DNA of 64,000 bases from a virus. Positions within the stretch are counted from its first letter, which is position 1. Every line of letters starts with the position of its first letter. Both the position numbers and the translations under genes were made by a program. Positions 1-54,622 of this stretch are shown piece by piece. A model generated the notes under the pieces. It worked only from the letters and a program-made list of their open reading frames with translations, searched no databases and was not told the DNA's origin. The DNA lies in IMG/VR virus record IMGVR_UViG_3300029194_000183, positions 9,970 through 73,969 of that record; one strand, given 5' to 3'.

Positions 1-715
1 CATTGTGGAGACTGTTGGCCCGGACGGCTTCTACAACGAATGGGCCGACAGCGGCAACTACTATGTGGATTTCGATATTTCCACGGACCGCATCTACAAG
101 GCCACCGGTGATGACAATGAAAACGGCATGGACACGCTGGTCATCGGCGAGGACTACTGGAATGAGGAAACGCTGGGCAAGCTGACCATCCGTAAGACCG
201 GCAATGCCTTGACAGGAAAGATCGAAACCAACGATTTGATTGACCCCTGGATGACCGGCGAGGCCGATTCCGACTTTGCCTATACACTGCGCCCGCTGGC
301 CGGTGCGGAATACACCATTACGGCTGCCGAGGACATTTACACGCAGGACCGCCAGCTGGATGCCAACGGCAGCCGCACGCTCTGGTATGCCAAGGGCGAC
401 GTGGTAGCGGTTGTTACCACCGGTGATGGCAGTGCAGACACTTCTGTGTTTGCGCCGTCCCGAACCAAGGCAACCTATGATTTTCTGTCGGTCATTCACG
501 ACGGCACGCTCGGCGAGGTCAGTATTACCCTGCCGTTGGGCAGCTACCATGTGGAGGAAACCAAGTCGCCCTATGGGTATGTCGGCACGACAGACAGCTA
601 CGATGTGACCTTTAGAAACTCCCTCGGTACTTTCAGGCATAAACAGGATTCAACGTTGGTCGCAGAGCAAACCACCATATTTAGCGTTTCTATATTTCTT
701 CGCGTCAATATATAG
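1..715 (+). pseudogene. 3'-disrupted fragment of a Cna B-type (SpaA/isopeptide-fold) cell-surface adhesin gene; the ORF enters from upstream of the window
   Basis: Frame is open from the window start. It contains the Cna-B-like motif LPLGSYHVEETKSPYGYVGTTDSYDVTFRN. After that only about 30 aa of non-domain sequence precede a stop, with no LPXTG sorting signal. Confidence 0.5.
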
Positions 716-721: not shown

Positions 722-880
722 GTCACGAGGACAGGGGTGCCATCAGGAATAAACATCCGTTTGGACACGAGGCAGATTTCCGCCCCTCCCAGGCTTCGGC
801 AATTTAGACACGAGGAAATAAGTGCGGTCGGGAATAAACACCCGTTCAGACACGGAGCAACTGCCCTCTGAAAGTCAAAA
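722..880. repeat. Two imperfect ~50-bp direct repeats at the host/element junction
   Basis: Each repeat reads (ga)cacgagg-N17-ggaataaacaYccgtt-N3-gacacgRgg. Four copies of cacgagg/cacggag lie within 160 bp. Confidence 0.35.
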
Positions 881-957
881 AAAGCAGCCCACCGGGTAGC
901 CTTTCCTTCCTGCTGATCTCTCAGCTCGTTGGAAAGCAACCTGGTGGGCTGCTGCAT
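880..957 (-). terminator. Stem-loop (gcagcccaccgg ... cctggtgggctgc) followed by a T-run on the minus strand
   Basis: A roughly 11-bp GC stem with a long loop, A7 on the plus strand (T7 on the minus strand), immediately downstream of minus-strand gene 1019–1453. Confidence 0.4.
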
Positions 958-1018: not shown

Positions 1019-1453
1019 TCAAATATTCTCTGACTCAGAAGCCGACTGCGCTGACTCCTGCGTGCTTTCGTTCTCCTTGTCCACCCTTCCCTCGAAAATG
1101 GGAATGGCGCGACACAGGTCGTAATTCACGAGTCTCTGCTGCGGATACTCAACACCCGGCAGCCGGTAGGACCTTGTTCTGTCCCAGCCACAGCTCTGAT
1201 AAATCAGGCGCACAAGATTCTTGCTTTTGATCTCATATCGGTCATCCTGATTTTTCTTCGGAACACGATTGGCCCCCTCTGCGTCCATTCCACACGCTTG
1301 TATTGCAAACATCTGCTTGGTCGGATTGTAGAGGAAGTGATAGAATTCCGGGCGGCCAATAGATTCAAGGGCGCTCCGGAAGACTGTGATACGACCGTCT
1401 GCATATCGAAATGTAATCCCCAGCATATTCTGCTGCCATGTCTTTGCTGGCAC
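1019..1453 (-). CDS. Hypothetical protein, a stand-alone paralog of the serine-recombinase C-terminal domain (possibly DUF4368-like)
   Basis: Segments ITFRYADG...KQMFAIQACGMDAEGANRV...LVRLIYQSCGWDRTRSYRLPGVEY...VNYDL align with the C-terminal region of recombinase 2129–4090 and with ORF 1513–2250. Confidence 0.4.
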   Translation of the reverse strand: MPAKTWQQNMLGITFRYADGRITVFRSALESIGRPEFYHFLYNPTKQMFAIQACGMDAEGANRVPKKNQDDRYEIKSKNLVRLIYQSCGWDRTRSYRLPGVEYPQQRLVNYDLCRAIPIFEGRVDKENESTQESAQSASESENI

Positions 1454-1512
1454 AATTTTTCCTCCTTCCTGAAAAAGGGTAGACTCCCCCCCTTGGTGCT
1501 CAAATTCAATTT

Positions 1513-2250
1513 TTATAGATTTTGCTGTTGTCCGGGCATACCCGTAAGCATTCCAACCGAGACAAAACCATCCATTTGCCTCAGCTCAGACTCTTGGCGA
1601 TGCTGCTCAACAGGCATGCCAAATGTACCCGCGATGTCATCTGGGTAGTAACCCTTCCGAGGATTCACAGGCTGTTCTTCCGTATTCTCTTCGGCCACTG
1701 TCGTAGGTTGTTGATCAGCAGACTGCTTCTTTTTACACTCGTGGAACACCTCGGCCGCCACAAGGTCAAACACATAGAGCGCTTCGCCCTCGAACTCGAT
1801 GCGGTATCCGAGGATCTTATACCGGCAGTCACCGGACCAATCCATTTCCTTATAAAGCAATTCTGAAAATAACCTGCAGGACATTTTCCGACTCTTACGC
1901 TTGTCCGGTTTTGCGATACACCAGCGCAGAGCATCCCTGTCATTTTCATTACAGCCTTTAACTACAAGCCGCTTTAAGTCGCTGTTAAACATGATGTTGA
2001 CGTACACCACATCCTCCAAACCTGCAATGCAGGCCGTGTTGAATGTGATGCTGTCTTTCCTTATTATAATGGCGGGATCTCGAAGATGTGCAAAAAGTTC
2101 CCTCCGGGCGACCTGATAGCCATCATAATCAAAGGTCTGCTCGATCTCCGTTCTCCTCTGTTCCCGCTCCGACATCTGCTCCGCACTCAGTTCCAACGCC
2201 TGCGGATTCTCCATCTCCATTGTCTGCTGATTCGCCATCTCCATGTTCAT
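1513..2250 (-). CDS. Hypothetical protein homologous to the C-terminal extension of the adjacent large serine recombinase; start uncertain
   Basis: SITFNTACIAGLEDVVYVNIMFNSDLKRLVVKGC...RWCIAKP...MDWSGDCRYKILGYRIEFEGEALYVFDL matches LSFNTACLKKFENVEYVELLLNSVNRCIAVRPC...HWGKL...MDWDQDLKYRFRGDFIENDDQKVMLFQLD of the 653-aa recombinase. The ORF overlaps the recombinase 3' end, so the true start is probably an internal Met. Confidence 0.45.
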   Translation of the reverse strand: MNMEMANQQTMEMENPQALELSAEQMSEREQRRTEIEQTFDYDGYQVARRELFAHLRDPAIIIRKDSITFNTACIAGLEDVVYVNIMFNSDLKRLVVKGCNENDRDALRWCIAKPDKRKSRKMSCRLFSELLYKEMDWSGDCRYKILGYRIEFEGEALYVFDLVAAEVFHECKKKQSADQQPTTVAEENTEEQPVNPRKGYYPDDIAGTFGMPVEQHRQESELRQMDGFVSVGMLTGMPGQQQNL

Positions 2251-4090
2251 CTGGTATAGGCCACCCTTCTATTATTTTCTCTGCTTCATGTAAAAGTTCT
2301 TCAAGGTCTTCTGAGGTCAATGTACTGTATTCGGCCAGTTCCTTTGCCGGCCGCAAAACATCCCAGTCAGCCGCATAGTGCCTCTGCTCCAGTAGATTAA
2401 TCTCTCCGATGCTGGTAATCGGTCTTCCAAATGTGTCCTCCCATTCCGGAGGCAAAATGTAAATAATCTGCTTAACTGTCCTCCCTGCGATTTCAGCTCG
2501 GTCATCTGTTTCAGCTTCTTTGGGCGGAAGAACGATGTTCTCCGTCTTTACCATTTCAGGTTCGTCCAGTTGAAACAGCATAACCTTTTGGTCATCATTC
2601 TCGATAAAGTCACCACGGAAACGGTATTTCAGGTCCTGATCCCAATCCATAATGTCAAACAGCGTTTTCGCCAGTCCACGGCACGACTTGGACAGCGCAC
2701 ACCACCGCCCTTCGCGCAGCTTTCCCCAGTGAATTGCATTTGGATTGTTCCCATCACACGGTCGAACAGCAATACACCTGTTCACTGAATTCAACAGCAG
2801 CTCTACATACTCCACATTCTCAAATTTTTTGAGGCAGGCCGTATTAAAGCTCAGTTTTCCATCTGCTATTGTCATCGCAGGGTTTTGCGTAGTAGAGAAA
2901 TACTGAGACCGAACCACCTCATAGCCACGCATGTCTAATCCTGCTTTATATTCAATCTGCCGCGTGTCCTCCAACTCGCTCATAACACTTTCAGATGCCT
3001 TTTGATATTCATCCGTTGAGAATCCGGTCCAGTCTTTATCCAGTGGTACATATCCTCGAAGGATTCCATTGTCAACAACGCTTAGTACAGGCAAGGGCCT
3101 AGCTTTCTTCGCATAGGCACGTGATGCCCGAAGAAAATTTGCTGCTTCATATACAGTTCGAGAAACTATGGCTTCATGATGATTTTTTCTTCTAAACTGC
3201 GTTCTTTCACCATTGTTCTTTTTGGCTTTGTGTGTCAAAAAATTAGGGGTAAATGTCTTCCACGCCCTAATGTCACCACAATGACGTTCATTTGCAACAA
3301 TCTCGGCCAGTGTGCTTGCGCTCCACTCATAACTTCCCTGCTTTGTCTTGCGTTTATAGGCTTTAAGCAATTCTGCAATATCAGAAAATGAAACACCATT
3401 CAAGTAAAGATAGTAGATTGCTTTTACAGTTTCAGCTTCGTCCTCATTGACGATAAGGTCACCATCTTCGTCCCGGTCATAGCCAAGCAGCTCTGGTGTT
3501 AAAAACAGTCCCTTCCTAAACCGGCGTTCAATCGACCAGTTCATAATGACCGATTTTGAATGGGATTCTTCTTCAGCAACCGAGGCCAAAATCGTCAAGA
3601 TCATTCGTCCATTATTGTCAAGCGTATAAATGTTGTCTGCTTCAAACTGAACACCTACAGGCGGTTCAAGGTTTTTCAGAAGGTCAATAACAGAAAGGCA
3701 ATCAACGATGTTTCTTGCAAATCGAGCAATCGACTTGGTCATGATCAAATCTATTTTCCCGGCTTTACAATCCTCAATCATCTGGAGCATGCCTTTTCGG
3801 TGTGCAATAGATGTTCCGCTTATACCTTCATCTGCATAGATTCCAACAAGTTCCCATCCAGGATGTCCTGTAATGTACTCAGCATAATAATTCTTTTGAA
3901 GTTCATAAGAAGATGTCTGTTCGTCATTATCCGTTGAGACCCGAACATAGGCCGCCACACGGCGAATTCCACCGCTCTCCATAAAATCCGCAGTAGGCTT
4001 TGCAGGGATTATTTCGATTTCAGACGCATCCGTGCCTTTATATTTATCACGGATTTTCTGCTTACGGTCTTGTCCACTGTTTTCTTTCAC
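2129..4090 (-). CDS. Large serine recombinase (resolvase catalytic domain, recombinase domain, Zn-ribbon, C-terminal extension)
   Basis: RRVAAYVRVSTDNDEQTSSYELQ...KSIARFARN...ESHSKS motifs. 653 aa. Confidence 0.9.
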   Translation of the reverse strand: MKENSGQDRKQKIRDKYKGTDASEIEIIPAKPTADFMESGGIRRVAAYVRVSTDNDEQTSSYELQKNYYAEYITGHPGWELVGIYADEGISGTSIAHRKGMLQMIEDCKAGKIDLIMTKSIARFARNIVDCLSVIDLLKNLEPPVGVQFEADNIYTLDNNGRMILTILASVAEEESHSKSVIMNWSIERRFRKGLFLTPELLGYDRDEDGDLIVNEDEAETVKAIYYLYLNGVSFSDIAELLKAYKRKTKQGSYEWSASTLAEIVANERHCGDIRAWKTFTPNFLTHKAKKNNGERTQFRRKNHHEAIVSRTVYEAANFLRASRAYAKKARPLPVLSVVDNGILRGYVPLDKDWTGFSTDEYQKASESVMSELEDTRQIEYKAGLDMRGYEVVRSQYFSTTQNPAMTIADGKLSFNTACLKKFENVEYVELLLNSVNRCIAVRPCDGNNPNAIHWGKLREGRWCALSKSCRGLAKTLFDIMDWDQDLKYRFRGDFIENDDQKVMLFQLDEPEMVKTENIVLPPKEAETDDRAEIAGRTVKQIIYILPPEWEDTFGRPITSIGEINLLEQRHYAADWDVLRPAKELAEYSTLTSEDLEELLHEAEKIIEGWPIPDEHGDGESADNGDGESAGVGTECGADVGAGTEENGDRADL

Positions 4091-4099
4091 GGTTTCACC

Positions 4100-5071
4100 T
4101 TATTCCCTGAGCGTCCAGTACCACTGGCGCATTTTTCTATAGCTTTGTATTCCCAGCACATGTTTTGTCTCAGCTATGGTTCTGCGACTTATTCCAGCTT
4201 CTCCAAGCCTTTCATAGATTTCTTTTGATGCCATATCACCTTTTACAAGATACTGCTTCAAAAGAGCGCAAGCCATTTCTGTTTTTGTCTTATACTCCAA
4301 AGTCTGCACTTCTTGTTTTTCATCGCAGCTTTCAGATATGGAATCCAGCCATTGGAACCCGTAATCCTCTGTTATCGAGAAACTGATTTTAGACCCATCT
4401 GGTCCTAAGCTGTTTTTTATCTGGTGAACGACACGGATATCCATGTTTTCTGCATCGCGCTCAATCTGCAACACACTTCTTGCAGCCGCCACCACGTCAA
4501 TGCTTCCAAGGCTTCTATACAAGCCTTTTATGCCTTCCTTTTTGTTCAAGTGCCCTATCAGCACAATGGCGCAATCATAGGTAGCCGCCCACATTCCAAG
4601 GTGCTGCATCAGCCGCCTTGCTTTTCCAGCAATCTGCAAATCGGAGTCACTGGAGAGGTATGCTTGAATTGGGTCAATCACAACAAGCCTCGGTCGAAAC
4701 GCAACGATTGCATCCCTAATGCGTTCATCATCGAGTGTCAGCCCACTGTTGACTTCTTCATTGATAAATGCCACTTTGCTGCAGTCAGCCCCCTGTTCTT
4801 CCAGCCTGGGTTTTATCGTATCTGCGACCCCATCTTCCGAGCATTGGTAGATAACCCTCTGTGGTTGCTCCAATAATTTACCGTCAGGAAAGGTACCTCC
4901 TGTGGTTATTTCAGCAATCAGGTTCATCATCATTGTGGACTTGCCATCACCGGGGTCTCCCTGTAGCAAGGTTATTTTTCCAATTGCAATATATGGATAC
5001 CAGAGCCAGCGAACTGGCGATGATTCGACCTCACTATACAGCGTCAAAAGTCCTTCTTGCACTCGTCCCAA
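4100..5071 (-). CDS. RecA-like/AAA_25-type P-loop ATPase with C-terminal HTH
   Basis: Walker A LLQGDPGDGKST; Walker B-like LVVIDPIQ; C-terminal ASKEIYERLGEAGISRRTIAETKHVLGI. The start is a non-ATG codon. Confidence 0.6.
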   Translation of the reverse strand: MGRVQEGLLTLYSEVESSPVRWLWYPYIAIGKITLLQGDPGDGKSTMMMNLIAEITTGGTFPDGKLLEQPQRVIYQCSEDGVADTIKPRLEEQGADCSKVAFINEEVNSGLTLDDERIRDAIVAFRPRLVVIDPIQAYLSSDSDLQIAGKARRLMQHLGMWAATYDCAIVLIGHLNKKEGIKGLYRSLGSIDVVAAARSVLQIERDAENMDIRVVHQIKNSLGPDGSKISFSITEDYGFQWLDSISESCDEKQEVQTLEYKTKTEMACALLKQYLVKGDMASKEIYERLGEAGISRRTIAETKHVLGIQSYRKMRQWYWTLRE

Positions 5072-5129
5072 TCCCCCGTTCCCGCATTGTATAACCCTTA
5101 GAGTTCTTCAGTTTTATTATACATCTGCA

Positions 5130-5200
5130 CTGGCGAGTTGACTGTCAAGCAGTAGACGACACGTTTTTCTAAATGTCAACTACTGCTTGACATTTGATAG
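5130..5200. promoter_or_regulatory. Imperfect inverted repeat (TTGACtGTCAAGCAGTAG ... CTACTGCTTGACAttTGA) between divergent operons; candidate operator with -35-like TTGACA boxes
   Basis: An 18-bp arm pair centred between the minus-strand ATPase/recombinase operon and the plus-strand XRE gene. A TATAAT sits on the minus strand at about 5108–5113. Confidence 0.3.
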
Positions 5201-5329
5201 AAAATATTCTCTAAGGATGCAACACCGTAAGGGGAGGAAGGTTGCATCCTTACCGCATTAATTTGCTATGTGTTTTGTTCGGCGCAATAATTGTCTTGTT
5301 CTTATGCGGGCCAGTTTGGAGGTAAAGCC

Positions 5330-5671
5330 ATGCCTATAGACTACCCTGCGCTCGGAAAACGTATAGCGTTTTTTCGGAACCAGTCTCACCTCACGCAAGA
5401 AGACTTTGCATACGAGGTTCATCTTTCCCGTCAATACATCAGTCAGCTCGAAACCGCTGCCTGCCGACCAAGTCTTGAAACAATCGTAGAGATTACAAAC
5501 ACTCTCGGCGTTTCTACAGATGACTTGCTTGTCGATAGTCTGACCCACTCCGTTTCCACAGCAGACACCGAAGTTCATCGGCTTCTGATTGACTGCAACG
5601 AACTCGAAGCTGAAATTCTCACTCGTACCTTGAAAGAATTACGCGCCATCCTTTACAGCCTCGGCGTATAA
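5330..5671 (+). CDS. XRE-family HTH transcriptional regulator
   Basis: LGKRIAFFRNQSHLTQEDFAYEVHLSRQYISQLETAACRPSLETIVEITNTLGVSTDDLL is a classic HTH_3 helix-turn-helix. RBS GGAGG lies before ATG 5330. Confidence 0.75.
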   Translation: MPIDYPALGKRIAFFRNQSHLTQEDFAYEVHLSRQYISQLETAACRPSLETIVEITNTLGVSTDDLLVDSLTHSVSTADTEVHRLLIDCNELEAEILTRTLKELRAILYSLGV

Positions 5672-5757
5672 ACAAAAATTGCCCGCATAAGCCACCGCTG
5701 CACCTTCTTTTCCAGAGGGTGCTTCTGTGGTCTATGCAGGCTGTATGTAACCAAGGT

Positions 5758-6126
5758 CTACCTTTTAGTTGAAGTCCAGCAATCGTACAGGAAATCTAAC
5801 AGCCCTGTGGCTACTGTTTGAACTGTAACCGATCCGTTCACCGACTTAAGCTGGGCCTCCATTGTCTGCCATAATTCTGGCGCAAGCTCAGTTTTCTGGC
5901 CTACTGCTCCCAGAGCGTATTCTACCGAATCGTTCACCAAACCAGACAGGGTTCTCCCATCGACCGTCACTGCCCCTCTCTCCAAGCTTATCACTGCATC
6001 CATTTTCTTTTTCGCGTCGGACCATGGCAAATTCATCAAGTAAACTTTGATTGCTGCGGCAACTACCACTTCTGGCCCAGTCAATCCATAGGATTCAATA
6101 TGTACCTGTTCAAGTTCATGCTTCAT
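5758..6126 (-). CDS. Hypothetical protein
   Basis: RBS GGGAGG precedes ATG (MKHELEQ...). No recognisable domain. Confidence 0.4.
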   Translation of the reverse strand: MKHELEQVHIESYGLTGPEVVVAAAIKVYLMNLPWSDAKKKMDAVISLERGAVTVDGRTLSGLVNDSVEYALGAVGQKTELAPELWQTMEAQLKSVNGSVTVQTVATGLLDFLYDCWTSTKR

Positions 6127-6206
6127 ACAAGTTCCTCCCAATCGTGTGTCTCTGGCACCCAGCATAAAGCAAAACTCTATACATAGCAATCCCATCCAAA
6201 ACAAAA

Positions 6207-6277
6207 AGGCCCACCGGGTCACCATCTTCTTTTGCTTATTCGCAAAGCTAGAAAGTGACCCGGTGGGCTGTATCAGT
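6207..6277 (-). terminator. Stem-loop ggcccaccgggtcac ... gtgacccggtgggcc followed by a T-run on the minus strand
   Basis: Roughly 15-bp inverted repeat arms; the minus strand reads ...gtgggcctttttgttttgg. Located just downstream of recombinase gene 6273–7487. Confidence 0.45.
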
Positions 6278-7487
6278 TTTTCTCAACTTCAATATGGTCT
6301 GGATATACCAGTACCTTCGATACTTCCTTTTCAAACCGTTCCTGATCCATGTTCAGCCACTCAAGTTCTCGCAGGATTGCATCGATAAGTTCTTCTTCCT
6401 TAATAAAGCGGTTGCCGCATCGCTCATTGCCTTTTCCTTTTTGCCGGTTTCGGCAGTTCCACGCTTTATAGGTGCTTTGCGTCTTGAAACCGCCAGCAGC
6501 TTTCAAAGTCCGGCGCAAAAAGGGAGTACCACATTCTCCACAGAATACTTTGCCGTAGAGGAAGTGATGCTCCCTGTTCGTTTTATGAATACCGACCTTT
6601 GCCAGTTCTTTTCGTTTTTCCAGAATTTCCTGTGCCTTATCCCATGTCTCCCGATCTATGATTGCTTCATGGTCATCCCACAGATAATTGGATTCCACCT
6701 TCTGATTCGGATTGGGCTTCTTGGTCAGGTAGTCCAACGGAGCTTTCTTCTGCAACCGCTTGTCACCCACATAGGTTTCATTTGAAACCATGTACCGGAG
6801 AGTTTCTACTCCAAACCCCTTTTTACTGTGCAACGATTGAGCCCCCAGCTCTTCCAAACCTTTAGCGATTTGCCTATAGCTCTCGCCTTCGATGAATCTG
6901 CGGAATACTTCCTTTACAATCCAAGCGTCCTTGTTGGGAACCAGCTCGCCATCCACACAGTCGTAGCCGAGAATACGATTATTGCCGAGATTGTACTCAC
7001 CTCGTGCAAATCGGCTTGCATAAGCAGCCTTTTCATTTTCACTGATAGAATGACTTTCATCCTGTGCCACTGCTGCCAAGATGGATAGGACGAAATCACA
7101 GGTTGGATCATCTGTGCGGATATTTTGTTCCTCAAAAATGATTGTAACCCCCAGCGTTCTAAACCATTTGGCATACTGCTGGCAATCCACCATGTTCCGA
7201 GAAAACCGGGAAATACTCTTGCAAATGATAATATCCAGCTTCTTGGCTTCGGCGGCCGCCGCCATTTCCTGAAAGCCCGGTCGATTTTTCACTCGTGTAG
7301 CAGAATGCCGGTCAGCATATACCTTAACCAGTTCCCAGTCGGGATGACTTTGGATCAGCTCCTCGTAATACTTCTGCTGAGTTTCAAAGCTTTCATCCTG
7401 CTCGTTGCGAAAAGTGCTGACACGGCAATACGCGGCCACACGTTTCTTTGCCACTGGGATTTTTGGCATTACCTTTTTAATAATCAT
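6273..7487 (-). CDS. Serine recombinase (third gene of the tandem triplet)
   Basis: KKRVAAYCRVSTFRNEQDESFETQ...KSISRFSRN...DESHSIS plus a C-terminal Cys-rich Zn-ribbon (CGECGTPF...CRNRQ). Confidence 0.9.
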   Translation of the reverse strand: MIIKKVMPKIPVAKKRVAAYCRVSTFRNEQDESFETQQKYYEELIQSHPDWELVKVYADRHSATRVKNRPGFQEMAAAAEAKKLDIIICKSISRFSRNMVDCQQYAKWFRTLGVTIIFEEQNIRTDDPTCDFVLSILAAVAQDESHSISENEKAAYASRFARGEYNLGNNRILGYDCVDGELVPNKDAWIVKEVFRRFIEGESYRQIAKGLEELGAQSLHSKKGFGVETLRYMVSNETYVGDKRLQKKAPLDYLTKKPNPNQKVESNYLWDDHEAIIDRETWDKAQEILEKRKELAKVGIHKTNREHHFLYGKVFCGECGTPFLRRTLKAAGGFKTQSTYKAWNCRNRQKGKGNERCGNRFIKEEELIDAILRELEWLNMDQERFEKEVSKVLVYPDHIEVEKN

Positions 7488-8988
7488 TTGCTGCTACTCC
7501 ATTCTCCTTGGCACGGAGGTTCTTTGCCGTCTGCATGGCAGCATTACGCTGTGCCTCCCGCGTATTCACTGACTTCTTATCAGCCCGCACCACGCTCACC
7601 GGCTTGTTCTCGCTCCGCTGCGCACGGTCCAGCGAGTTCCGATAAAGCTCTGCCACATGGGTCGGTTCCTCAACCTTGGATGCATTCAAAGCAACCTCGC
7701 TCTCCAGACCACATTTCCAGAACACCCGCATGGTGTCCTGTTTAAATTCAATGTGCCCCACCAAGTCATCCAGCCAGTAATACTGGACGGTGTCCAGTTT
7801 CGGGCTCTCTGCCTTGATTTCCAGCATCCTCTGCATAGCTACCGTCCGCTTCTTTTCCTTGATTTCAAGGGTGTTGTAGGCTTCCAGCAGGGCAGCATCC
7901 ACAAGATACCCTTTGACCGCATACCCACGGCAGCCGTCCACATCAAAGCAGCCAAGGATGCGCTTGTGGCTGTTCACTTTCATGACCCTCGGAATCATCT
8001 TCTTCCCACACAGCGGGCAGACAATGTTTGTATCGAAGTAGGGATACCGGCTGTACTCCCCATGCGGAGATTTCAGTTCCATAATGCGCTGTACCTGCTG
8101 GTAGGTATGGCGGTCGATAATAGGAACATGGTGGTTCCTGACGTTGTAGACCGGAATCACAGTCGAGTCGTTCCGGACACTCCTATGGGAAATATGGTCA
8201 ACACTGACCCATTTCTGAAGCCGCATATCACCAATGTACTTCTCGTTCTCAAGGAGATACTTAAGGGCGGTCTTGTTCCACGTCTGCTTGCCCCTTGCGG
8301 AAGGAGCCTGTATAAAGGTCAGCTCATCCAGAATGTCCGTCATGGGGATGCCGTACTGGTACATTTTGAAAATCATCCGCACAATGGCAGCTTCGTCCGG
8401 TTCAATGACAATTTCACCGTCCTTGGTCTTCCGATAGCCATAGGTCTTGGTCCAGCGCGACTCACCACTTTCAAACCGCTTGCGAATGCCCCATTTCAGG
8501 TTTTCGGAGATGGAACGGCTTTCCTCCTGTGCAAAAGCCGCCATGACCGTCAGAATCAGTTCGGACACCGACGTTGCCGTATCCAGTCCTTCCTTTTCAA
8601 AGTAAAGCTGGACACCGATGCTCTGAAGATGGCGCACATAGGACAGACATTCGACCGTGTTGCGGGCAAATCGAGAGATACTTTTTGCCATGATATAATC
8701 GACCTTGCCTGCCTCGCAATCCTCCATCATCCGCAAGAACTCTTTACGCTTTTTCACGCTGGTTCCGCTGATGCCCTCATCGGCGTAGACATCCACCAGC
8801 ATCCAGCCAGGGTGCTGGGCAATCTTAGCGCGGAAGGCTTTCATCTGCTCCTCCAAGCTGTGGAGCTGAATCTCCTGGTCCGTGCTGACACGGGCATAGA
8901 CTGCAACGCGGACTGTTTTCAAGGTGCTAAGTGCCTGAAAGCCAAGCTTCTGTACCCCAGTGTCTACCTTTTCTACTGTAATTTCCAT
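7477..8988 (-). CDS. Serine recombinase (second gene of the tandem triplet)
   Basis: VRVAVYARVSTDQEIQLHSLEEQ...KSISRFARN...ESRSIS plus Zn-ribbon CPLCGKK...GCFDVDGC. The stop overlaps the start of 6273–7487. Confidence 0.9.
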   Translation of the reverse strand: MEITVEKVDTGVQKLGFQALSTLKTVRVAVYARVSTDQEIQLHSLEEQMKAFRAKIAQHPGWMLVDVYADEGISGTSVKKRKEFLRMMEDCEAGKVDYIMAKSISRFARNTVECLSYVRHLQSIGVQLYFEKEGLDTATSVSELILTVMAAFAQEESRSISENLKWGIRKRFESGESRWTKTYGYRKTKDGEIVIEPDEAAIVRMIFKMYQYGIPMTDILDELTFIQAPSARGKQTWNKTALKYLLENEKYIGDMRLQKWVSVDHISHRSVRNDSTVIPVYNVRNHHVPIIDRHTYQQVQRIMELKSPHGEYSRYPYFDTNIVCPLCGKKMIPRVMKVNSHKRILGCFDVDGCRGYAVKGYLVDAALLEAYNTLEIKEKKRTVAMQRMLEIKAESPKLDTVQYYWLDDLVGHIEFKQDTMRVFWKCGLESEVALNASKVEEPTHVAELYRNSLDRAQRSENKPVSVVRADKKSVNTREAQRNAAMQTAKNLRAKENGVAANDY

Positions 8989-9000
8989 GTACTTTTCTCC

Positions 9001-9942
9001 TTATTGCCATTTGGGGTCGCTCAGGACCTTCTGCTGTTCATCATTGTATTTTTTTCGTCCGGAGTGGAGCAAGCCCATCTGAATCATGGTCTGCACACGC
9101 TCGAACTGTTCTCTGCTGACAATGCCTTCATGATGGTCCTCCAGATGAACTTGGGCGCGTTCTCCCCTGTTCCGCTTGCTGTATCGGTGGCCGTTCTTGC
9201 CGTAGGCCGTGTAGTAGCAATCCGTCCAGTAATCCCCCATGTATGCGACATTTTTCAGCATATTGGGTAGTCGATTTCGATTCTGAGACCATGACACACC
9301 GGTATTTTCCTCATCCTCCATCTTATCCAAGCAAGCTCGGATATCTGCGTAGCAGACTCCTTTTGCCGCTTGGTCAAAGGCATAGCGGACACGGCGGGCC
9401 TCGGATTCTTCAATTCTCCATTCACCCTGCTTGTTGACCCTGCGAAAGCCGTAGGTCACACGGCCGGTCGGAATGCCCTGGTCATGGAGATAGGCGATGC
9501 CTGCTCGAACATTCTCACCGATGCTCTTGGACTCCTCCTCGGCAATGATGGCAAGGATGTGGAAGAACAGCTCGCTCTGGCCATTCATCGTGTTAATGCC
9601 CTCTTTTTCAAAAATGACCGGGATGCCCAGCTCTTTCAGCCTACGCACCACGGTCACACAGTCAAGCATATTTCGGGAGAAACGGGAGATGGACTTGGTA
9701 TAGATGATGTCGATTTTGCCATCCATGCAATCTTGAATCATCTGTCGGAATTCCGGCCGACCCTGCGTACTGCGTCCGCTGCCTTCATCCGCATAGACCT
9801 TTACGAGTTCCTCATCGGGGTTATTGGAGAGCAGCTCTGTGAAGTAGCTTTTCTGAATCTCATAGGAACCTTCCTGACACTCCATGCCGGTGCTGACTCT
9901 GCAATAGGCCGCCGCCCTTTTCTGTTTCACTACAATTTCCAT
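9001..9942 (-). CDS. Serine recombinase (first gene of the triplet; shorter, lacks an obvious Zn-ribbon)
   Basis: MEIVVKQKRAAAYCRVSTGMECQEGSYEIQ...KSISRFSRN...ESKSIG. A strong RBS AAGGAGG lies 8 nt before ATG 9942. The longer ORF start at 10023 has no RBS. Confidence 0.85.
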   Translation of the reverse strand: MEIVVKQKRAAAYCRVSTGMECQEGSYEIQKSYFTELLSNNPDEELVKVYADEGSGRSTQGRPEFRQMIQDCMDGKIDIIYTKSISRFSRNMLDCVTVVRRLKELGIPVIFEKEGINTMNGQSELFFHILAIIAEEESKSIGENVRAGIAYLHDQGIPTGRVTYGFRRVNKQGEWRIEESEARRVRYAFDQAAKGVCYADIRACLDKMEDEENTGVSWSQNRNRLPNMLKNVAYMGDYWTDCYYTAYGKNGHRYSKRNRGERAQVHLEDHHEGIVSREQFERVQTMIQMGLLHSGRKKYNDEQQKVLSDPKWQ

Positions 9943-10084
9943 TGCGTCATCCTCCTTGGGGTAGTCGTATAATGCCGCATGTATGGCTGAATAGCAAGTT
10001 CTGTCGCCCAGATAAATCGGCATATTACCGACAAACTATCTGCCTGACAGAACGCCTGAATTGCAGCATATATGACAAATGTAA

Positions 10085-10184: not shown

Positions 10185-11666
10185 TTAGACCTTCTTGACG
10201 TAATCGAGGCTGATCCAGCCGTTACGCTTGCCGGCAAAGGACTTCAGCAATCCCCACTTGGATGCACCCTTACCTGTTGCCTCCGCAACAATGGTGAACA
10301 CACCCTTGCCAGTAAAACCACGGAAGCCATAGTTCGTGCCGGGGCCTTTGCGGATGCGCAGGTCAGAGATAGACACCCGGACCGTGTAGGGCTGAAATGC
10401 CGTGCTGGTGGGATAGACCGCCTTGCCGTTCTCATCGAACACCGAGTAGCCGGGATTCTTGTCAGCACACGCCTTGGCGTTGCTCAGGTCACGGAAAGCT
10501 CCCTTCTGAGATGCAGTATCCGACCAGTTCTTGCGCACACGGTACAGGGTCGCGGCGGGTGTGACAGGCGTAACAGATGCTGCCACATCGAACTGGGTCA
10601 GGTTCCACTGCTCAATGACCCGGCAGAGGTTCTGCATATAGTCAAGGCTCGTCGCATAACCGCCATCCTTGATGATCTGCACCGCTTTCTTATAGTCCGT
10701 GCAGCCTGCCAGTCCCTCGTACCGCTTCTTGCTGCCGTTCATGGCACCCAGCAAATAAGCGGAGTGATCTGCAATGGAGTCCTCAATGGAGCCGTACTTG
10801 CGGAAGTCGGCCGTGACGGTCACATAGCTGCCATCCGTGTTCTGCTCTCCGGTCTGCATGGTGTAGACGGAATGCCCATCCCACGCAGAGCCAGCCCAGC
10901 TGTTCCCCGACAGCGAGGATTTCATGCCAAAGCAGTTATTGGCATTCTGTGCCAGCTCGGACTTGCCGTAGCCGGATTCCAGAATGAACTGCGCCATGGA
11001 CACGCTGGCAAGGATGCCGGACTGCTTCTGGTTTGCGGTAAACAGCGTGGCCACCTTTGTCACAACCTCTGCGGACTCCATATCCTTCAAAGAAGCTGCC
11101 TGCAAGCCAGTGGACGCAACAGGAGTGCCCAGTGCCGCCGTTACCTTGGCCGCCAGATCACTGAGGCGGCTGTACAGCCAGTCGCCGGGGCAGGCTTTGT
11201 TCGCATACCAGCGGTGGACGGTCAGAACCATCTCATCCGATGCCGGCGCATAGTTCAGCGTCTTGTTCTTGTCCCCCAGCCAGAGCAGCTTGGTCTTACC
11301 GTTCCGCTTGCAGATGTCGGTACAGAGCTTGATAAGCGAAGTGTAGACGGCACTGTTCATGGCGTATGGGTGGGTCAGGTCACTGGCGCACTCGATAGTG
11401 ATAGCCCGCTGATCGTTTGCTGCACTGGAAGAGCACCAGCTCCGGTTCTTTTCTTCGACACAGAGCGACACACGGCCGTCCTTGCCGATGCCGTAGTTAC
11501 AACTTGCCTGACGACTCGGGCTGATGAAGCAGCCACAGATACTTTCCGCAGACAACTGCCCCACCACACAGTGCGGGGTGATGCGGTCGATGCTGTGTGT
11601 CCGCTGCCCAGAATGGTTCGGGCTGAGGTTCGTATAAACCACTAAGGGACTGTTAGTGTATGCCAT
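10185..11666 (-). CDS. Endolysin: N-acetylmuramoyl-L-alanine amidase (Amidase_2/PGRP-like) + glucosaminidase + SH3b cell-wall-binding repeats
   Basis: N-terminus IDRITPHCVVG...NYGIGKDGRV...ITIECA...HRWY..CPG. Middle FILESGYGKSELAQNANNCFGMK is the glucosaminidase signature. The C-terminus carries two SH3b-like repeats (YRVRKNWSD... and YTVRVSISDLRIRKGPGTNY). Confidence 0.85.
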   Translation of the reverse strand: MAYTNSPLVVYTNLSPNHSGQRTHSIDRITPHCVVGQLSAESICGCFISPSRQASCNYGIGKDGRVSLCVEEKNRSWCSSSAANDQRAITIECASDLTHPYAMNSAVYTSLIKLCTDICKRNGKTKLLWLGDKNKTLNYAPASDEMVLTVHRWYANKACPGDWLYSRLSDLAAKVTAALGTPVASTGLQAASLKDMESAEVVTKVATLFTANQKQSGILASVSMAQFILESGYGKSELAQNANNCFGMKSSLSGNSWAGSAWDGHSVYTMQTGEQNTDGSYVTVTADFRKYGSIEDSIADHSAYLLGAMNGSKKRYEGLAGCTDYKKAVQIIKDGGYATSLDYMQNLCRVIEQWNLTQFDVAASVTPVTPAATLYRVRKNWSDTASQKGAFRDLSNAKACADKNPGYSVFDENGKAVYPTSTAFQPYTVRVSISDLRIRKGPGTNYGFRGFTGKGVFTIVAEATGKGASKWGLLKSFAGKRNGWISLDYVKKV

Positions 11667-11734
11667 AGAAGATTCCTCCCAATAGAAAAAAGCCCGGATT
11701 GCTCCGGGCCAGACTGTGTTGATTTGGTTTTTGG

Positions 11735-12394
11735 TCAGGGCAGAAGCAGCTTCATGCCGATTCGGATGGCATTGGAAGTCAGGCCGTTCAGCTCACGGAT
11801 GTCCGTGTAGTGGGTACCGCTGCCGAGCTTACGCTCTGCGATGCGCCACAGGTTGTCCCCTGCTACGACTTCGTACACATCTCTGCCGACAAAGACATAG
11901 GCATCATCCTCGTTCAGCACATAGGCAATGCCGTCCTCCTCCTCCGGGCACTTGATCTTCAGCCAGTTGTCGCAGACCTCCAGCACCTCCACGATGGTGT
12001 TCATCGGGTACACAGTCACGACCTCTGCTTCGAGACTGGGTTCCTTGCGGATGTTCATCAGGGTCTTCAGCTTACCGAAAGCAACGGCATCCGGCTGTGG
12101 CTCTGCGGACGGGAAGTCCTCTTCGCCATCGCCGGGTGCATCATCGCTGGGCTTGTCCTCTTCCGGGAGATCCATTACAGGCTTCTCCTCAGCGGTTTCT
12201 TCCCGGGTCGTGGGCTCATCCGCCGGATAGATGACCGTGCCGTCCTCGGCAAAAACATGGCTGCCGGGGTTCTCGTCACACTTCGCCTTGGCATTTGCCA
12301 GCAGCTTATATGCACCGAGCTGGGATGCGTCATCGTTCCAATCGGTCCGAACACGATAATAGCCGGTGTTCAGCTTTGCAGGATATTCATTCAT
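11735..12394 (-). CDS. Cell-wall-binding protein (SH3b-like repeats + C-terminal LysM) with no catalytic domain
   Basis: The N-terminus YYRVRTDWNDDASQLGAYKLLANAKAKCDENPG is paralogous to the endolysin SH3b module. The C-terminus YEVVAGDNLWRIAERKLGSGTHYTDIRELNGL is LysM. RBS GGAGG precedes ATG 12394. Confidence 0.6.
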   Translation of the reverse strand: MNEYPAKLNTGYYRVRTDWNDDASQLGAYKLLANAKAKCDENPGSHVFAEDGTVIYPADEPTTREETAEEKPVMDLPEEDKPSDDAPGDGEEDFPSAEPQPDAVAFGKLKTLMNIRKEPSLEAEVVTVYPMNTIVEVLEVCDNWLKIKCPEEEDGIAYVLNEDDAYVFVGRDVYEVVAGDNLWRIAERKLGSGTHYTDIRELNGLTSNAIRIGMKLLLP

Positions 12395-12593
12395 AGTCGT
12401 TCCTCCATCTAAAATTAGGGAGAGGTCGCCCTCTCCCAATAGACTCCTTCATAAAGCGCACGATTTTTTGGCTTTGGGGAGGTACTTTTCAGAAAACTTC
12501 TCTCATTATGCTTACTGAAATTCAGCATTTGGTACCCAGTTCTCCAAATTTCCCTCTCATAAAGGACAATGAAAATGGCGAAAAGTTGTATAG

Positions 12594-13025
12594 TTACCCT
12601 TCTTTTTCGTCATCTTTCTCCGGGATATGCTTCTCGTTGGTCAGCTGGATCAGCATATCCTTCAGCTTCTCCGGGATGGGAATGCCGATTACGGCAGAGT
12701 TCTCCAGGATGGACAGGCCTTCATTGGACAGGTAGAAGAAAATCACAGCGGTGCGAATCGCTGCGCCGTTCTGAAGCACCTGCGTATCGATAACATTCGC
12801 CACGCCCACCAACAGGAAGATGCACACCTTCTTGGCAATGCCCTTAAAGCCCACCTCGCTGGACAGCTCCTTGCGGATGCCCGCCGCAAGGATGCCGGTG
12901 AAGTAGTCGGTCACCACAAAGATGATGAGTGCGTAGAGGAAGCCATCAAAGCCTCCGAAGAACCAGCCGAGAAAACCGCCCAGTGCCGCAAAAGCAAACT
13001 GGAGCTTGTCGATTACATTCTGCAT
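12594..13025 (-). CDS. Holin (TcdE / phage_holin_4-like, multi-TM)
   Basis: MQNVIDKLQFAFAALGGFLGWFFGGFDGFLYALIIFVVTDYFTGILAAG... gives three predicted TM helices and a charged C-terminus, placed in the lysis cassette. Confidence 0.7.
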   Translation of the reverse strand: MQNVIDKLQFAFAALGGFLGWFFGGFDGFLYALIIFVVTDYFTGILAAGIRKELSSEVGFKGIAKKVCIFLLVGVANVIDTQVLQNGAAIRTAVIFFYLSNEGLSILENSAVIGIPIPEKLKDMLIQLTNEKHIPEKDDEKEG

Positions 13026-13132
13026 ACTTGTACCTTGCCTTTCCTGCCCTTTGCAGGGCATAAAAAATAGGACGGTGCTCCGTCCTTGTGTAATGGTGTT
13101 CTATATAAACACAGCCGTGTGGCTGTGGGGTA

Positions 13133-15893: not shown

Positions 15894-18800
15894 TCAGAGG
15901 GCATTTACCTCTGCATCCATAGCGATACACTTCAGACGATACCAGTTGATAATCTGGCTCATATTGTTGGTGTTCGTTCCGGGAATCTTTGGCCACAACA
16001 CCACTTCATGATCCAGCAGCCCCTTCGGGATGTCCACAAGGAAGTTTGAAACCACCGTCTGAACATTACCCTCGCTCAGAACGTTCTTTCGGAGTGAGGC
16101 ATACCGGGACTTAATCTTTGCTCTGTAGCAGTTGTACAGGATTCCCATCAGCTTGTGGCTGCCGGCAAACCCTTTGAGCGTCGTAACCGTATCCGGGTTA
16201 TAGTAGACCTTACCGTTCCAGCAGTTACCGAATGCGGTGTCAAGATCGTACTCGGAGAACGCCCACTTCACGCCATCAAAGGTCATCAGGATATAGTTCT
16301 TGTCGAGGTTATCGGTCAGTGCGAACATGGAGGTAATGATAAAGTAGTCCACGGCGCTGTCAAGATCCAGATACGGACTGAGTGCCGACTCCACATCTGC
16401 TGCGGTAGTGCCGCTGAAGTTCATAACAGCACGAATCAGGGTATTCACGCTGTCCTTGACCCACTGGGTATTGGATTCGTCCGGCACATACTCCATCTCG
16501 AAGTCGGTCTTATCCACCTTAGCTTCCTCAGCAAACTGCGTTCCCTTGGCGTGCGTTTCGGCCGTCAGGATACACTCCTTGGCTCCATCGCTCATACCGA
16601 ACATCCACTTATCCTTCGGAATGTTCAGCGTGTAGATGCCCTGATACTCGTCGTTGATTGCCACCATGATAGGGAACCCATCAATGGCACCGCCGTTGGG
16701 CAGATCATACAGCTTTTCGTTGCGTTTCGGGCGAGTACGCACCGCCTGCCCCCACAGTTTGGCCGCAACGATGTTTCGGCAATGGCTGAAATCGATATAA
16801 TTGGCTTTCAGGCAGTACTTCTTCTGAGCGCCCCACTTCTCAACGATCGTTCGCTTTTCATCGAAGGTGATGGTGAAGTTCTTCTTATCGTATGCGAGGC
16901 TGGAAGCACCTTGCCATTTCAGCGTACAGTTGCCAGTCAGCTCACCGTAGGCGTAGGCCAGCTTGACCTTGTTCTCCTTGCTGATTCCCTTCATGGAGCC
17001 GGTCAGTTTCAGGAGAGGCAGGTTGTAGCTTTCATACGGAAACCCGATGTCCTCCTCCGGTTCTTCCTCTTTCTCCTGTGCAAAGGCCAGCATATCTGTC
17101 TGACTGAGCTTGCCCTCGACCACATAGACGTGCAGGATATGATCCTCCAGCGTCATTTCCTTGCGGTAGTTGATACGCAGCCGGACATCCATCGAGGCAT
17201 CCGGCGCAAAGGTCCCAAACGGAGACTTCTGCACATTGAAAGCAAGGCCCATACCATTCTGCTTGACGGCCGCGCCGGTGGTCTTGTCCACCAGCGTCAT
17301 GTTGTAGTCCACCGTCTTATCGGTATCCCGGACAAGAATGGTGTAGGACTGCCCTGCCTCCAGATGGAAAACCTCGCTGATGTTGGTATAGGTCGTGGTG
17401 CTTGCCGTACCAAAGGTACCGTTCAACATGATGCCCGCCGGGTCCGGCATACCAATCGAATTCAAGCGGTAAACTCCCGTACCATCCAAGAATCCCTTAT
17501 TGCCGAGCATCCGCACAAGATTCTTCTTGCGGACATCATCCTTGACAGCTGCCATCTCGGAAATGACCGCTGCAAGCGTATCGCTCTTGGGATAGGCGTA
17601 GAAGTCATCTGCACTCCAATCCTGACCCTCGTACATATAGGCATGGATCAGGTGGTTGCTGAACACAGCGCCGGTAGCATAGATGCCCATTTGGTAGTCG
17701 CCTGTCGTATCCGGGATAACCTGTTCAAAGCGCCCGCCGATTGCAGAGGCACCACGGTTCGTACCACCCTGCTGCAAACAGGCACTGGAAGTGGTTCTAT
17801 AGAAGAACATGGAATAAGGCGCGGGTGGGTCATCGTCCACGATATGCACTGTGTAGGCCTTTCCCTTTTCCAGATGCATCGGCTCGGAGATGCGAAGGAT
17901 GGTCGCATTCAACTCACTGGACATCAGGCCATTGACAATGATACCCGCTCCATCCAAAACGCCGAGGGCAGTTGCCGTTGCCGACACATCGCCGGCATTG
18001 CTGCGAACCACCGAATCAATGGTCTTCACCATATTGTTCATCCGTGCTCGATCAGACACCGTCAAGATATTTTCCAAGCCATTGTGCGTGGAAATCCATC
18101 GAGCATCCTCGCGGTCAGACAATACCTGGACCCTCTGGTCTGCATCCACCTTGACCTGCAGGAGTTCAGAATACTCTGCCCACGAGCGCATCTGCTGCTC
18201 GGTATAGGCCCCCTCCACCAAATATACACGGATATGCTGCCCGTCAAAAGTCGTAGCCGTATCGCATACGACACGCGCACGGCAGGAGTAGTCCTTATCA
18301 GCAGTAAAGGTGTACACATGGCGGTTCTTCGTATTCACGGACACTGTTGCACCATTGATCTGAATGGAGCCGTAGGTCACTTCATCACCGAGGAATACCG
18401 TAAGGGCGGGACAATCTTCATCCTCACGCACAAGCAACGTATAGGTTTTTCCGGAAGTCAACGGCACAAGGGTTGTGCAGCGGATGCTGTTCAGAGCCAG
18501 AGTACCACCCATATTGCCCACGATCTTCACGGATGCCTGATCGATATCGCTGTCCGCAATCATCTGAATCTTAGCATTTGTCTGCGGATTCGAGTCTCCA
18601 TAGTTGATCGTTCGGAACAGATTCTTGCTCCGGACATTGTCATGCACAGCGGCCAGACTCGTAAAGCTCCCGTTGAGGTCGTTGAACTCCACAAGGCCAC
18701 GAACTGTGTCGTAGGCGTAGACTCCTTCCAGAACAAACAGGTGCATCTCGCAATTTGGAAAATTCAAATCCTGGCTGGTATAGATACCCGGACGATAGTA

Positions 18801-42611: not shown

Positions 42612-42702
42612 TTTTCCGTGGGGTTTTCCCTTTCGGTATGCACATATTACCGTCACTTTCGTACACTATCAAGCGGCTATGATACACGATCATTCGCCCC
42701 TG
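42612..42702 (-). promoter_or_regulatory. Promoter/leader cassette copy R4
   Basis: Plus strand reads ttccgtggggttttccctttcggtatgcacatattaccgtcac...atcaagcggctatgatacacgatcat, the reverse complement of a TTGATA-N17-TAATAT promoter plus leader hairpin. Confidence 0.5.
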
Positions 42703-42787
42703 GATTTGTGTACATTCGGGCGGTATGACATTGGATGGACACGAGCAAAAGGCCGGTTTCCCAGCCCCTTGCCCCTATCCGTCCGGT

Positions 42788-43048
42788 TTACTTGCGGATT
42801 TCGAGGTAGCTTGTATTGCCCCAGCAATCCGTGGTCTTGAACCGCACCCTCTGCTCGGTTTCCCGGTCGAAGGCAACCTTCCTCAGAAGTTTCATCTTCT
42901 GGATGCGCCGCAGAAGGTCTGCTGCGTTCTCGGCATCTTCGATGGCATCCTGGATCTCGACCACCGAGCAGTCGGTGCCGTACCAAAGGTTGCTGAGTGC
43001 CTCCGGAATGCCGTTGGCAGTGAAAAGTCGGATGTTCGTGTAGGTCAT
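42788..43048 (-). CDS. Hypothetical early protein
   Basis: MTYTNIRLFTANGIPEALSNLWYGTDCSVVEIQD... Preceded by cassette R5. Confidence 0.4.
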   Translation of the reverse strand: MTYTNIRLFTANGIPEALSNLWYGTDCSVVEIQDAIEDAENAADLLRRIQKMKLLRKVAFDRETEQRVRFKTTDCWGNTSYLEIRK

Positions 43049-43059
43049 GGTGTTTATCT

Positions 43060-43138
43060 CCCTTCGTTTTTGTGACTGTATATTACCGTCACTCAGGGGT
43101 GATAGCAAGCGGCTAATGTACACGATCATCTAGCCCAG
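43060..43138 (-). promoter_or_regulatory. Promoter/leader cassette copy R5
   Basis: Plus strand reads gtgactgtatattaccgtcactcaggggtgatagcaagcggctaatgtacacgatcat. Confidence 0.5.
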
Positions 43139-43154
43139 CACTCCGGAAAATGTG

Positions 43155-43709: not shown

Positions 43710-43726
43710 GTTCGTTCTCCCCTTTC

Positions 43727-43933
43727 TCAGAATTCCAAGGTCTCCAGAACCTCGTCCGTGCCTGTCTCCCAGTCGTGGCGGGTCAGGCGGATTCGGCTGT
43801 ACATCTCGGCGCTGTCCGGCTCATCGAAAAGCCGGAAGCATTCTCTGGCAACCCCCTCATCGGTGTACTGCTGGGTCTCGTCGGGCTGGCCGTCCAGCCG
43901 GGTGAAGGTGATCTCGTAGGTGTAGCGTTCCAT
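43727..43933 (-). CDS. Hypothetical small early protein
   Basis: RBS GGAAGG precedes ATG MERYTYEITF. Preceded by cassette R6. Confidence 0.4.
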   Translation of the reverse strand: MERYTYEITFTRLDGQPDETQQYTDEGVARECFRLFDEPDSAEMYSRIRLTRHDWETGTDEVLETLEF

Positions 43934-43944
43934 GTTTTTCCTTC

Positions 43945-44030: not shown

Positions 44031-44039
44031 ATATCTTTG

Positions 44040-54611: not shown

Positions 54612-54622
54612 GTAGTCCTCCT

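Follow-up and report, generated by a model that had tools for sequence, protein, structure and literature searches.

A large serine recombinase with a substitute C-terminal domain, and two free copies of that domain, as a candidate integration module of a Faecalibacterium phage

The integrases of phages phiC31, Bxb1, A118 and SPbeta (SprA) are large serine recombinases in which a Resolvase catalytic serine domain is followed by a Recombinase domain and by a zinc ribbon with an embedded coiled coil. Their genes lie at the prophage end beside the attachment (att) site, and the prophage is inserted into a protein-coding host gene. Here, we analysed a window of 64,000 nucleotides of the virus record IMGVR_UViG_3300029194_000183 (positions 9,970 to 73,969), the left end of which encodes four serine recombinases. 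One of them, of 653 amino acids (aa) (rec653, designated type B), shares with the phiC31-type integrases the first two domains, the gene position beside att and the insertion into a coding gene. Comparison with these integrases revealed that (i) rec653 carries an unrelated domain and has no zinc ribbon or coiled coil; (ii) its operon includes two free paralogs of this domain, of 245 and 144 aa, and an AAA_25 ATPase; and (iii) the phage arm has three repeated motifs and shares 29–36 bp of identity with the target. We lean towards reading window positions 614 to ~5740 as the integration module of a Faecalibacterium temperate phage related to Candidatus (Ca.) Heliusvirales, with rec653 as its integrase. 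The main reason for this assignment is the consistent linkage of the type-B trio (recombinase, 245-like and 144-like genes) to a junction that falls in one and the same family of host genes.

Serine-integrase triplets, some members of which have no zinc ribbon, are described in Streptococcus integrative and conjugative elements (ICEs; PMC4701971), in keeping with the mention of Firmicutes elements in an earlier reading of the window made from sequence alone (the sequence-only reading). The ICE triplets and the other three recombinases of the window, named by length rec313, rec503 and rec404, have in common three adjacent genes at the element end, with insertion inside genes. The window genes have distinct C-terminal architectures, and the likeness described here is one of layout. 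Unlike the ICE triplets, the window triplet is phage-borne and follows the lysis genes, and a fourth recombinase of differing architecture is encoded with it. The best NCBIfam similarity of the window recombinases was to CcrA/CcrB of SCCmec, which resemble them as paired serine recombinases acting together. The scores (94–139 against cut-offs of 700–900) were all far below cut-off, so these proteins are not orthologs; the elements and targets differ as well. Ca. Heliusvirales phages are described among the most widespread human gut phages in two papers that do not discuss their integration (PMC11283538, PMC9226167). A search of the available literature returned nothing on this module and no link of serine integrases to AAA_25, to a Bac_transf target or to a substitute C-terminal domain.

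A C-terminal domain present in three copies

All four recombinases contained the Resolvase domain (PF00239, E 1e-26 to 6e-36), the Recombinase domain (PF07508, E 3e-12 to 2e-21) and, as read from the sequence, an intact Y-x-R-V-S-T catalytic serine motif. The open reading frames (ORFs), domains and motifs thus bear out the four serine recombinases of the sequence-only reading, and by their first two domains the four proteins are classed by sequence as members of the large serine recombinase family. A recognised zinc ribbon (PF13408) was present only in rec404, and none was found in rec313 or rec653. Pfam detected no zinc-ribbon domain in rec653, and the AlphaFold models of rec653 (of low confidence) and of the 245-aa protein had no long coiled coil; the full-length rec653 model was too poor for use, with a predicted local distance difference test score (pLDDT) of 46. 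Thus, rec653 does not have the third defining feature of large serine recombinases, the zinc ribbon with its embedded coiled coil. Past the Recombinase domain, rec653 has 330 residues without a family match in Pfam, NCBIfam or PHROGs, which comprise a ~130-residue β-rich domain (residues ~385–515) and a helical, acidic tail. On balance, rec653 appears to have lost the zinc-ribbon/coiled-coil domain, in the place of which the new ~130-residue domain stands.

The 245-aa and 144-aa proteins are paralogous to the C-terminal half of rec653, as the sequence-only reading had proposed: significant similarity was found on alignment, and BLASTP, multiple alignment and hhalign all agree. The common region, placed by that reading in the last 150 aa, actually spans residues ~366–580, the last ~70 aa being the acidic tail. 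The 245-aa protein matched rec653 residues 366–508 with 32% identity (BLASTP E 1e-23); their multiple alignment with homologs covers ~190 columns with ten invariant positions, and a second motif common to both is P-x-x-W/I-x-x-T-F-G-x-P. The 144-aa protein matched the core only (residues 409–508; BLASTP E 6e-6) and the 245-aa protein at E 4e-4, and its family aligned with that of the 245-aa protein and the recombinase over 111 columns (hhalign probability 95%, E 3e-8). A homolog search with the 245-aa protein returned 3504 sequences; the domain family as a whole is modest in size, a search of 1.84 billion proteins at E ≤ 1e-3 yielding 2087 representatives. In the AlphaFold model of the 245-aa protein, a core (residues 55–172, pLDDT 77–92) with the pattern b-b-a-b-b ... 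b-a-b-b-b is flanked by disordered tails. Neither small protein had a family match in Pfam, NCBIfam or PHROGs. No relative of the domain in the PDB was found by profile search, Foldseek gave no significant fold match, and there was no significant structural superposition on the AbrB/MraZ swapped-hairpin or B3 barrel DNA-binding folds. Zinc binding by conserved cysteines was considered and dropped, because those cysteines are absent from the 144-aa family.

Because the domain replaces the zinc ribbon that reads att sites in known integrases, we infer that it binds DNA. The free paralogs would then most likely be co-expressed DNA-binding subunits rather than classical recombination directionality factors (RDFs). 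The sequence-only reading had suggested directionality factors or dominant modulators. As such factors or as decoys, one or both proteins, being catalytically dead DNA-binding halves of an integrase, would compete for att and switch or block the reaction. Both have the putative site-recognition domain and no catalytic domains, their genes adjoin the att site, and the pair is kept in many deletion derivatives, even in those without the recombinase (loci L012 and L013–L017 of the survey described below). We regard this role as unlikely: the small genes share a transcript with the integrase gene and in many cases are coupled to it in translation, so the small proteins should be present during integration too, unlike a classical RDF, which is expressed apart from its integrase. 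Two distinct paralogs are also conserved together across the whole family. Known RDFs act on the coiled coil of the zinc-ribbon domain (PMC11722253), and this coiled coil is absent from rec653.

The module was surveyed by scanning one genome per species and annotating genes with local hidden Markov models (HMMs), which gave 80 species-level loci in Faecalibacterium, Blautia, Ruminococcus, Dorea, Coprococcus, Anaerostipes and many uncultured Clostridia. Recombinase, 245-like and 144-like genes followed one another in this order in 61 of the 80 loci, most of the others being short contigs. The AAA_25 gene was directly upstream of the recombinase gene in 46 of 48 loci, and genes overlapped by 4–8 nt in many lineages. 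An intact trio in fixed order, with genes that often overlap, is therefore not a set of decaying duplicates. Many truncated and chimeric copies do exist in metagenomes, but it is highly improbable that the small ORFs are functionless remnants of duplicated recombinase genes, because both are intact, in fixed order and with conserved residues in 61 of the 80 species at 35–90% identity.

The trio also occurred in 16 records filed under Ca. Heliusvirales. In the related phage NatCom_42228 (L130, PV036444.1), the gene for a type-B recombinase that has no such domain precedes one for a 140-aa free domain protein (HMM E 4e-16). The domain can therefore be a separate polypeptide beside its recombinase, and the arrangement implies that type-B enzymes and triplets are evolutionarily entangled. 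In two Lachnospiraceae/Oscillospirales Heliusvirales loci (L101 2955–4866 and L103 11476–13373), the trio has no preceding AAA_25 gene and is followed by genes for a 316–338-aa protein of no assigned function and a DUF6551 protein; phage genome PV036458 additionally has a secreted-type NS endonuclease gene at this place. Locus L018 has a second, diverged 245-like/144-like pair (274 and 121 aa; 16501–17687) 4 kb past its first remnant in the same exopolysaccharide (EPS) region, flanked by repeated PDDEXK_2 (Rpn-like) genes.

Element end, host target and arm repeats

Related elements were homologous to the window down to positions 606–621 and then diverged into differing host DNA (contigs L002 and L003 break at 621), which places the element boundary where the sequence-only reading had it, near 620. 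The att junction maps to 606–649. In the contigs compared, the module was always the last gene set before host DNA. The terminal 36 bp of the element (614–649) matched, base for base, the 3' end of the sugar-transferase gene Bac_transf of the host (coding ILFMPESTEGVS; protein end ...KILFMPESTEGVSEGQTTAMSGESH before the stop), and an uninterrupted target gene with the 36-bp sequence was found in IMG/VR contig L108. Bac_transf is the priming sugar transferase that starts capsule/EPS synthesis. At primary sites, the block is followed by the rest of the Bac_transf gene in various alleles (L005, L007, L015, L021, L111, L112, L116–L119, L123 and L125). Secondary sites are those of the window (in a pilin gene), of the L004 group (beside a polyamine operon) and of L109, L110 and L122; the initial bases at these sites are similar to the primary site (GARGG...), with which the window has 13 of 16 bases in common.

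In distant lineages, tblastn located a Bac_transf 3' fragment immediately past the 144-like gene; here the break in Bac_transf is at other positions, such as the GDMSxxGxRP motif ~100 codons from the end of the gene (L060, L065, L066, L068, L069, L075, L092, L039 and L063). At least three independent lineages had such a fragment past the module, with differing break positions, and at four of these loci (L065, L068, L069 and L075) no other recombinase was present within 7.5 kb. As part of the reading favoured here, the module's natural target is the 3' part of the EPS priming sugar-transferase gene, and the window copy lies in a look-alike secondary site in the pilin gene. In contig L001 (13376–21962), the interrupted pilin gene (window 5–613) continues upstream, in pieces of 964 and 318 aa. 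It adjoins BlaI-type (Penicillinase_R), CAP, PC4 and Mob_Pre genes, and the prophage therefore sits inside another mobile element.

The phage arm, the non-coding stretch of 410 bp from the 144-aa gene to the junction, contains all three matches to GTTTATNCCYGA found in the 64 kb (0.05 expected), in direct orientation. The outermost copy (633–644) is inside the block common to the host gene, and the positions are kept in relatives. Repeat families of the arm were designated D1 and D2. We know of no accessory repeats of this kind in large serine integrases.

Several observations weigh against rec653 as the integrase of this element. The 29–36 bp of identity between phage arm and host gene are unusual for serine integrases. 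In primary-site lysogens, synonymous changes of the host allele extend leftward to differing points, in L118 as far as ATGCC; the apparent crossover is left of ATGCC in this primary site and after TTTCY(GA) in secondary sites, and a single fixed 2-bp crossover thus does not explain both. Either there are two exchange points, or the crossover lies within the block and the prophage reached the secondary sites by another process. A search of IMG/VR for the excised window-type phage returned only integrated or truncated copies, no excision junction ties any of the four recombinases to the element junction, and the far prophage end was not reached (DNA looked up from window position 60.7 kb onwards was still phage at 71 kb). 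Lastly, a triplet alone closes the genomes of related phages such as NatCom_42228, and it might therefore be the integrase.

The recombinase triplet and the layout of the left end

At the end of the late operon, the rec313/rec503/rec404 triplet forms a second recombinase unit that is conserved separately and may be either a hetero-oligomeric partner or an alternative integration/excision system. If the triplet were the integrase, the type-B recombinase and AAA_25 would perform another task, for example resolving or rearranging replicating phage DNA. Triplets do integrate ICEs (PMC4701971), and precise rearrangement breakpoints cluster inside the recombinase, 245-like and 144-like genes. This alternative is nevertheless improbable, because the att junction follows the type-B trio and not the triplet in all lineages, including elements that have no triplet within 7.5 kb.

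A more serious, though still tentative, alternative is that two elements lie in tandem. The genes HTH–AAA_25–recombinase–245–144 would form a small island, resembling a satellite or an integrative mobilisable element (IME), that owns the sugar-transferase site and replicates with AAA_25, and a triplet phage would have integrated beside or into it. The sequence-only reading had likewise suggested an independent satellite or IME. The module was without any other recombinase in 11 of the 36 species loci with enough upstream DNA. Such solo modules lie beside defence-type cargo: SMODS/AGS_C (the cyclic-oligonucleotide-based antiphage signalling system, CBASS), PIN_12, caspase, AAA_21/15 and the actin-like ALP. 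In L098, the module is nearly alone between EPS genes and a penicillin-binding protein gene. The NatCom_42228 end with only a triplet also fits two elements, as does the layout of the module, since phage-inducible islands have an HTH/ATPase ... recombinase order. The G+C content is 45–48% at 2001–8000 (rec653, AAA_25, HTH, the 155-aa ORF and rec404/rec503), compared with 55–58% in the structural genes.

However, the low G+C also spans rec404 and rec503, and no host-gene fragment or att motif lies between module and triplet, nor was a second host junction seen there in primary-site lysogens. The synteny of lysin, two or three recombinases, p155-like, HTH, AAA_25 and recombinase genes recurs in distant genera. 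In PV036458, the trio is part of the phage genome itself: it belongs to a leftward operon with a CI-like HTH gene at its head, flanked by the early genes on one side and, on the other, by the late operon, whose last genes are two recombinases. The NatCom_42228 end consists of a lysin and three recombinases without AAA_25, and the third recombinase is itself of the rec653 type (the type-B N-terminal half), with its domain protein. Minimal copies of the L098 type have a truncated host gene on the inner side, as from deletions. None of the loci with a module copy lacking phage genes had both att junctions, and L098 looks deletion-derived. The independent-element alternative is partly supported by the solo modules, and the phage genomes argue against it; we retain the phage-borne module as the favoured reading. 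The window terminase large subunit (TerL) was 76.5% identical to that of NatCom_42228, yet equally close to those of Streptococcus phages; the placement near Ca. Heliusvirales is a tentative one.

All genes from 1019 to the right window end are on the - strand, with the exception of one HTH gene (Table 1). The position of the triplet next to the lysis cassette, proposed in the sequence-only reading, was confirmed from ORF coordinates and Pfam. The distance to the AAA_25 operon is 1.2 kb rather than ~2 kb, and this gap holds the 155-aa ORF, which has no family match in Pfam, NCBIfam or PHROGs, and the divergent HTH_3 gene. In the triplet, rec503 and rec404 overlap by 11 nt, and rec313 and rec503 are spaced by 12 nt; the open frame of rec313 is 340 aa (9001–10023), and the gene-caller start at 9942 gives 313 aa. 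The operon runs AAA_25, rec653, 245-aa and 144-aa genes and then, as also predicted, a terminator, here an inverted repeat of 21 nt that resembles a terminator and precedes a T run. The 245-aa ORF overlaps the stop codon of the rec653 gene; gene callers start it at M26 (2175), and the resulting 220-aa protein is the probable form. The AAA_25 protein matched RadA TIGR00416 (E 1e-9) and the HTH_3 protein matched NF041951 (E 3e-11), both below cut-off. At the lysis cassette, the lysin ends at 10185, the LysM protein and lysin occupy 10185–11666, and the holin occupies 12594–13061. No tRNA genes were found within the 64-kb window.

Table 1. Features at the left end of the window.
Feature	Position	Strand	Remarks
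SpaA/Cna-B-type pilin gene, 3'-truncated, interrupted by the element	5..613	+	Host-side flank; Pfam SpaA E 2e-7
Terminal 36-bp block ATCCTGTTTATGCCTGAAAGTACCGAGGGAGTTTCT (att core region)	614..649	-	Junction with host DNA directly after
Three direct GTTTATNCCYGA copies in the non-coding arm	633-644, 743-754, 828-839	-	Candidate binding sites of the triplicated domain
Terminator-like hairpin closing the recombinase operon	883-953	-	21-nt arms, 86% complementary, then T run
144-aa protein, free copy of the core domain only	1019-1453	-	BLASTP 6e-6 vs rec653; hhalign 95%
245-aa protein, free copy of the recombinase C-terminal half	1513-2250	-	BLASTP 1e-23
653-aa large serine recombinase (rec653, type B)	2129-4090	-	Resolvase and Recombinase domains; proposed integrase
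AAA_25 (RecA/RadA-like P-loop) ATPase, first gene of the operon	4100-5071	-	Pfam AAA_25 E 4e-26
Divergent XRE/HTH_3 regulator (RstR-like)	5291-5671	+	Pfam HTH_3 E 1e-10; kept in relatives
155-aa ORF between triplet and module	5758..6225	-	Weakly conserved (phmmer 25-35 bits, many loci)
404-aa serine recombinase (rec404), triplet member 3	6273-7487	-	Resolvase, Recombinase, Zn_ribbon_recom
503-aa serine recombinase (rec503), triplet member 2	7477-8988	-	CPLCG...GC..GC cysteine cluster, not called by Pfam
313-aa serine recombinase (rec313), triplet member 1	9001-9942	-	Catalytic and Recombinase domains only, without zinc ribbon
Lysis cassette (amidase/glucosaminidase lysin, LysM protein, holin)	10185..13061	-	End of late operon; Pfam on identical contig

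Farther to the right, three DNA methyltransferases are encoded at 50235–60563, and one of them includes a ParB_N domain. The same stretch encodes a D5/NrS-1-type primase-polymerase, a complete S-adenosylmethionine synthetase and an N-terminally extended MazF/PemK-like toxin. An SNF2-type helicase ORF (62757–63918) begins after a stop codon, without motif I; the gene is called as 415 aa in L107, and there may be a start or frame problem at the right window end. The early region of NatCom_42228 includes an annotated reverse transcriptase (42668–44347).

Recurrent breakpoints and a possible mechanism

Searches with the two halves of rec653 returned dozens of chimeric ORFs with recurrent, nucleotide-precise breakpoints (marked here by a slash). 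In one lineage, ten N-terminal partners were joined at exactly .../KSKKNNNDRTQ (HS1): Alg14, AbiEii, ANT, Mom-like, GT28, a TnpX-like fragment, two TraG fragments, a tape-measure fragment and one other. The HS1 equivalent in the window is at ~3230 (FLTH/KAKK in rec653), with HS1 at 10323 in L018 and at 5242 in L019; these two loci have 4068 bp in common at 99% identity from exactly HS1, with unrelated DNA on the left. At a second point (HS2; window equivalent ~3370, LLKAY/KRKTK), at least six partners were joined at .../SRKTKLG. The reciprocal products ...MEY/foreign and ...FLTH/foreign were present as well, and deletions also ran from the HS points to sites within the 245-like and 144-like genes. 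A fusion of rec503 (...DILD/) to the 245-aa protein at /VVYVNIMF occurred in the lineage of the window itself. In L016, a change from A6 to A5 in the poly-A run of HS1 (~1240; window ~3225) shifts the recombinase frame and yields a 405-aa product, which could be phase variation or a sequencing error.

The dinucleotide AT was at the junction in both parental DNAs in five of the five cases with known parents, and on the other strand HS1 (GATTT-AT-GCG) is similar to the att core (TGTTT-AT-GCC). These five junctions are the basis of the AT rule, because NAT codons are uninformative on the partner. The Y/D/N/H residue before the breakpoints was rejected as proof of AT in every partner, since such codons show only that the constant segment starts with AT. 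Assembly chimeras were likewise rejected as the source, as the same fusions occur in several samples and in contigs of 95–312 kb. The recurrent breakpoints look like recombinase action at pseudo-sites, although microhomology-mediated deletion may also account for them. Pseudo-site events would cut the integrase gene in two and leave the prophage locked in. Many other contigs (among them L006, L009, L012, L020, L120 and L128) are simple deletion derivatives of this prophage in which the terminal module is retained. Mosaic deletion derivatives at the same host site (L006, L009, L011, L012, L020, L120 and L128) all retain the terminal 245/144 pair; examples include a TerL nuclease half abutting an HTH gene, an Enc34–AAA_25 fusion and a tape-measure gene beside ParB.

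Gene content, paralogy, conservation, terminal position, target gene and repeats are shown by the sequence comparisons; for integration itself, we infer the cutting enzyme, the binding partners of the paralogs and the part played by AAA_25. The phage would extend from position 614 past the right window end. The domain would recognise GTTTATNCCYGA, once in the host gene and at three direct copies in the phage arm, and the three repeats may serve as recognition sites for the domain's three copies. The free 245-aa and 144-aa paralogs would occupy the extra sites, and rec653 and its paralogs may thereby build an asymmetric protein–DNA complex that does the work of the missing coiled coil in site pairing and polarity. 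The likeness to the Tn3 res, Sin-Hbsu and Gin-Fis synaptosomes is one of idea only, that is to say, direct extra sites beside the crossover and DNA-binding subunits that impose polarity. These three systems use small serine recombinases acting within one molecule, and to our knowledge no such accessory-site arrangement has been described for large serine integrases. A broader reading, which we consider doubtful, is that of a new class of large serine integrases, in which a triplicated DNA-binding domain reads a 12-bp motif with the assistance of a RecA-like ATPase, and AT-dinucleotide exchange also causes the recurrent precise fusions and deletions, both within the operon and with foreign genes, and drives prophage lock-in and EPS-locus rearrangement in abundant gut Clostridia.

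A serine integrase without the zinc ribbon and coiled coil cannot follow the published mechanism of site pairing and directionality. The triplicated substitute domain with its ATPase offers a testable alternative mechanism and possibly new enzymes for genome engineering. In several Lachnospiraceae lineages, the break lies ~100 codons from the Bac_transf end, and lysogeny may therefore switch capsule synthesis off, which excision may restore. Judging by the many deletion derivatives and precise chimeras, variation beside EPS loci has an active source.

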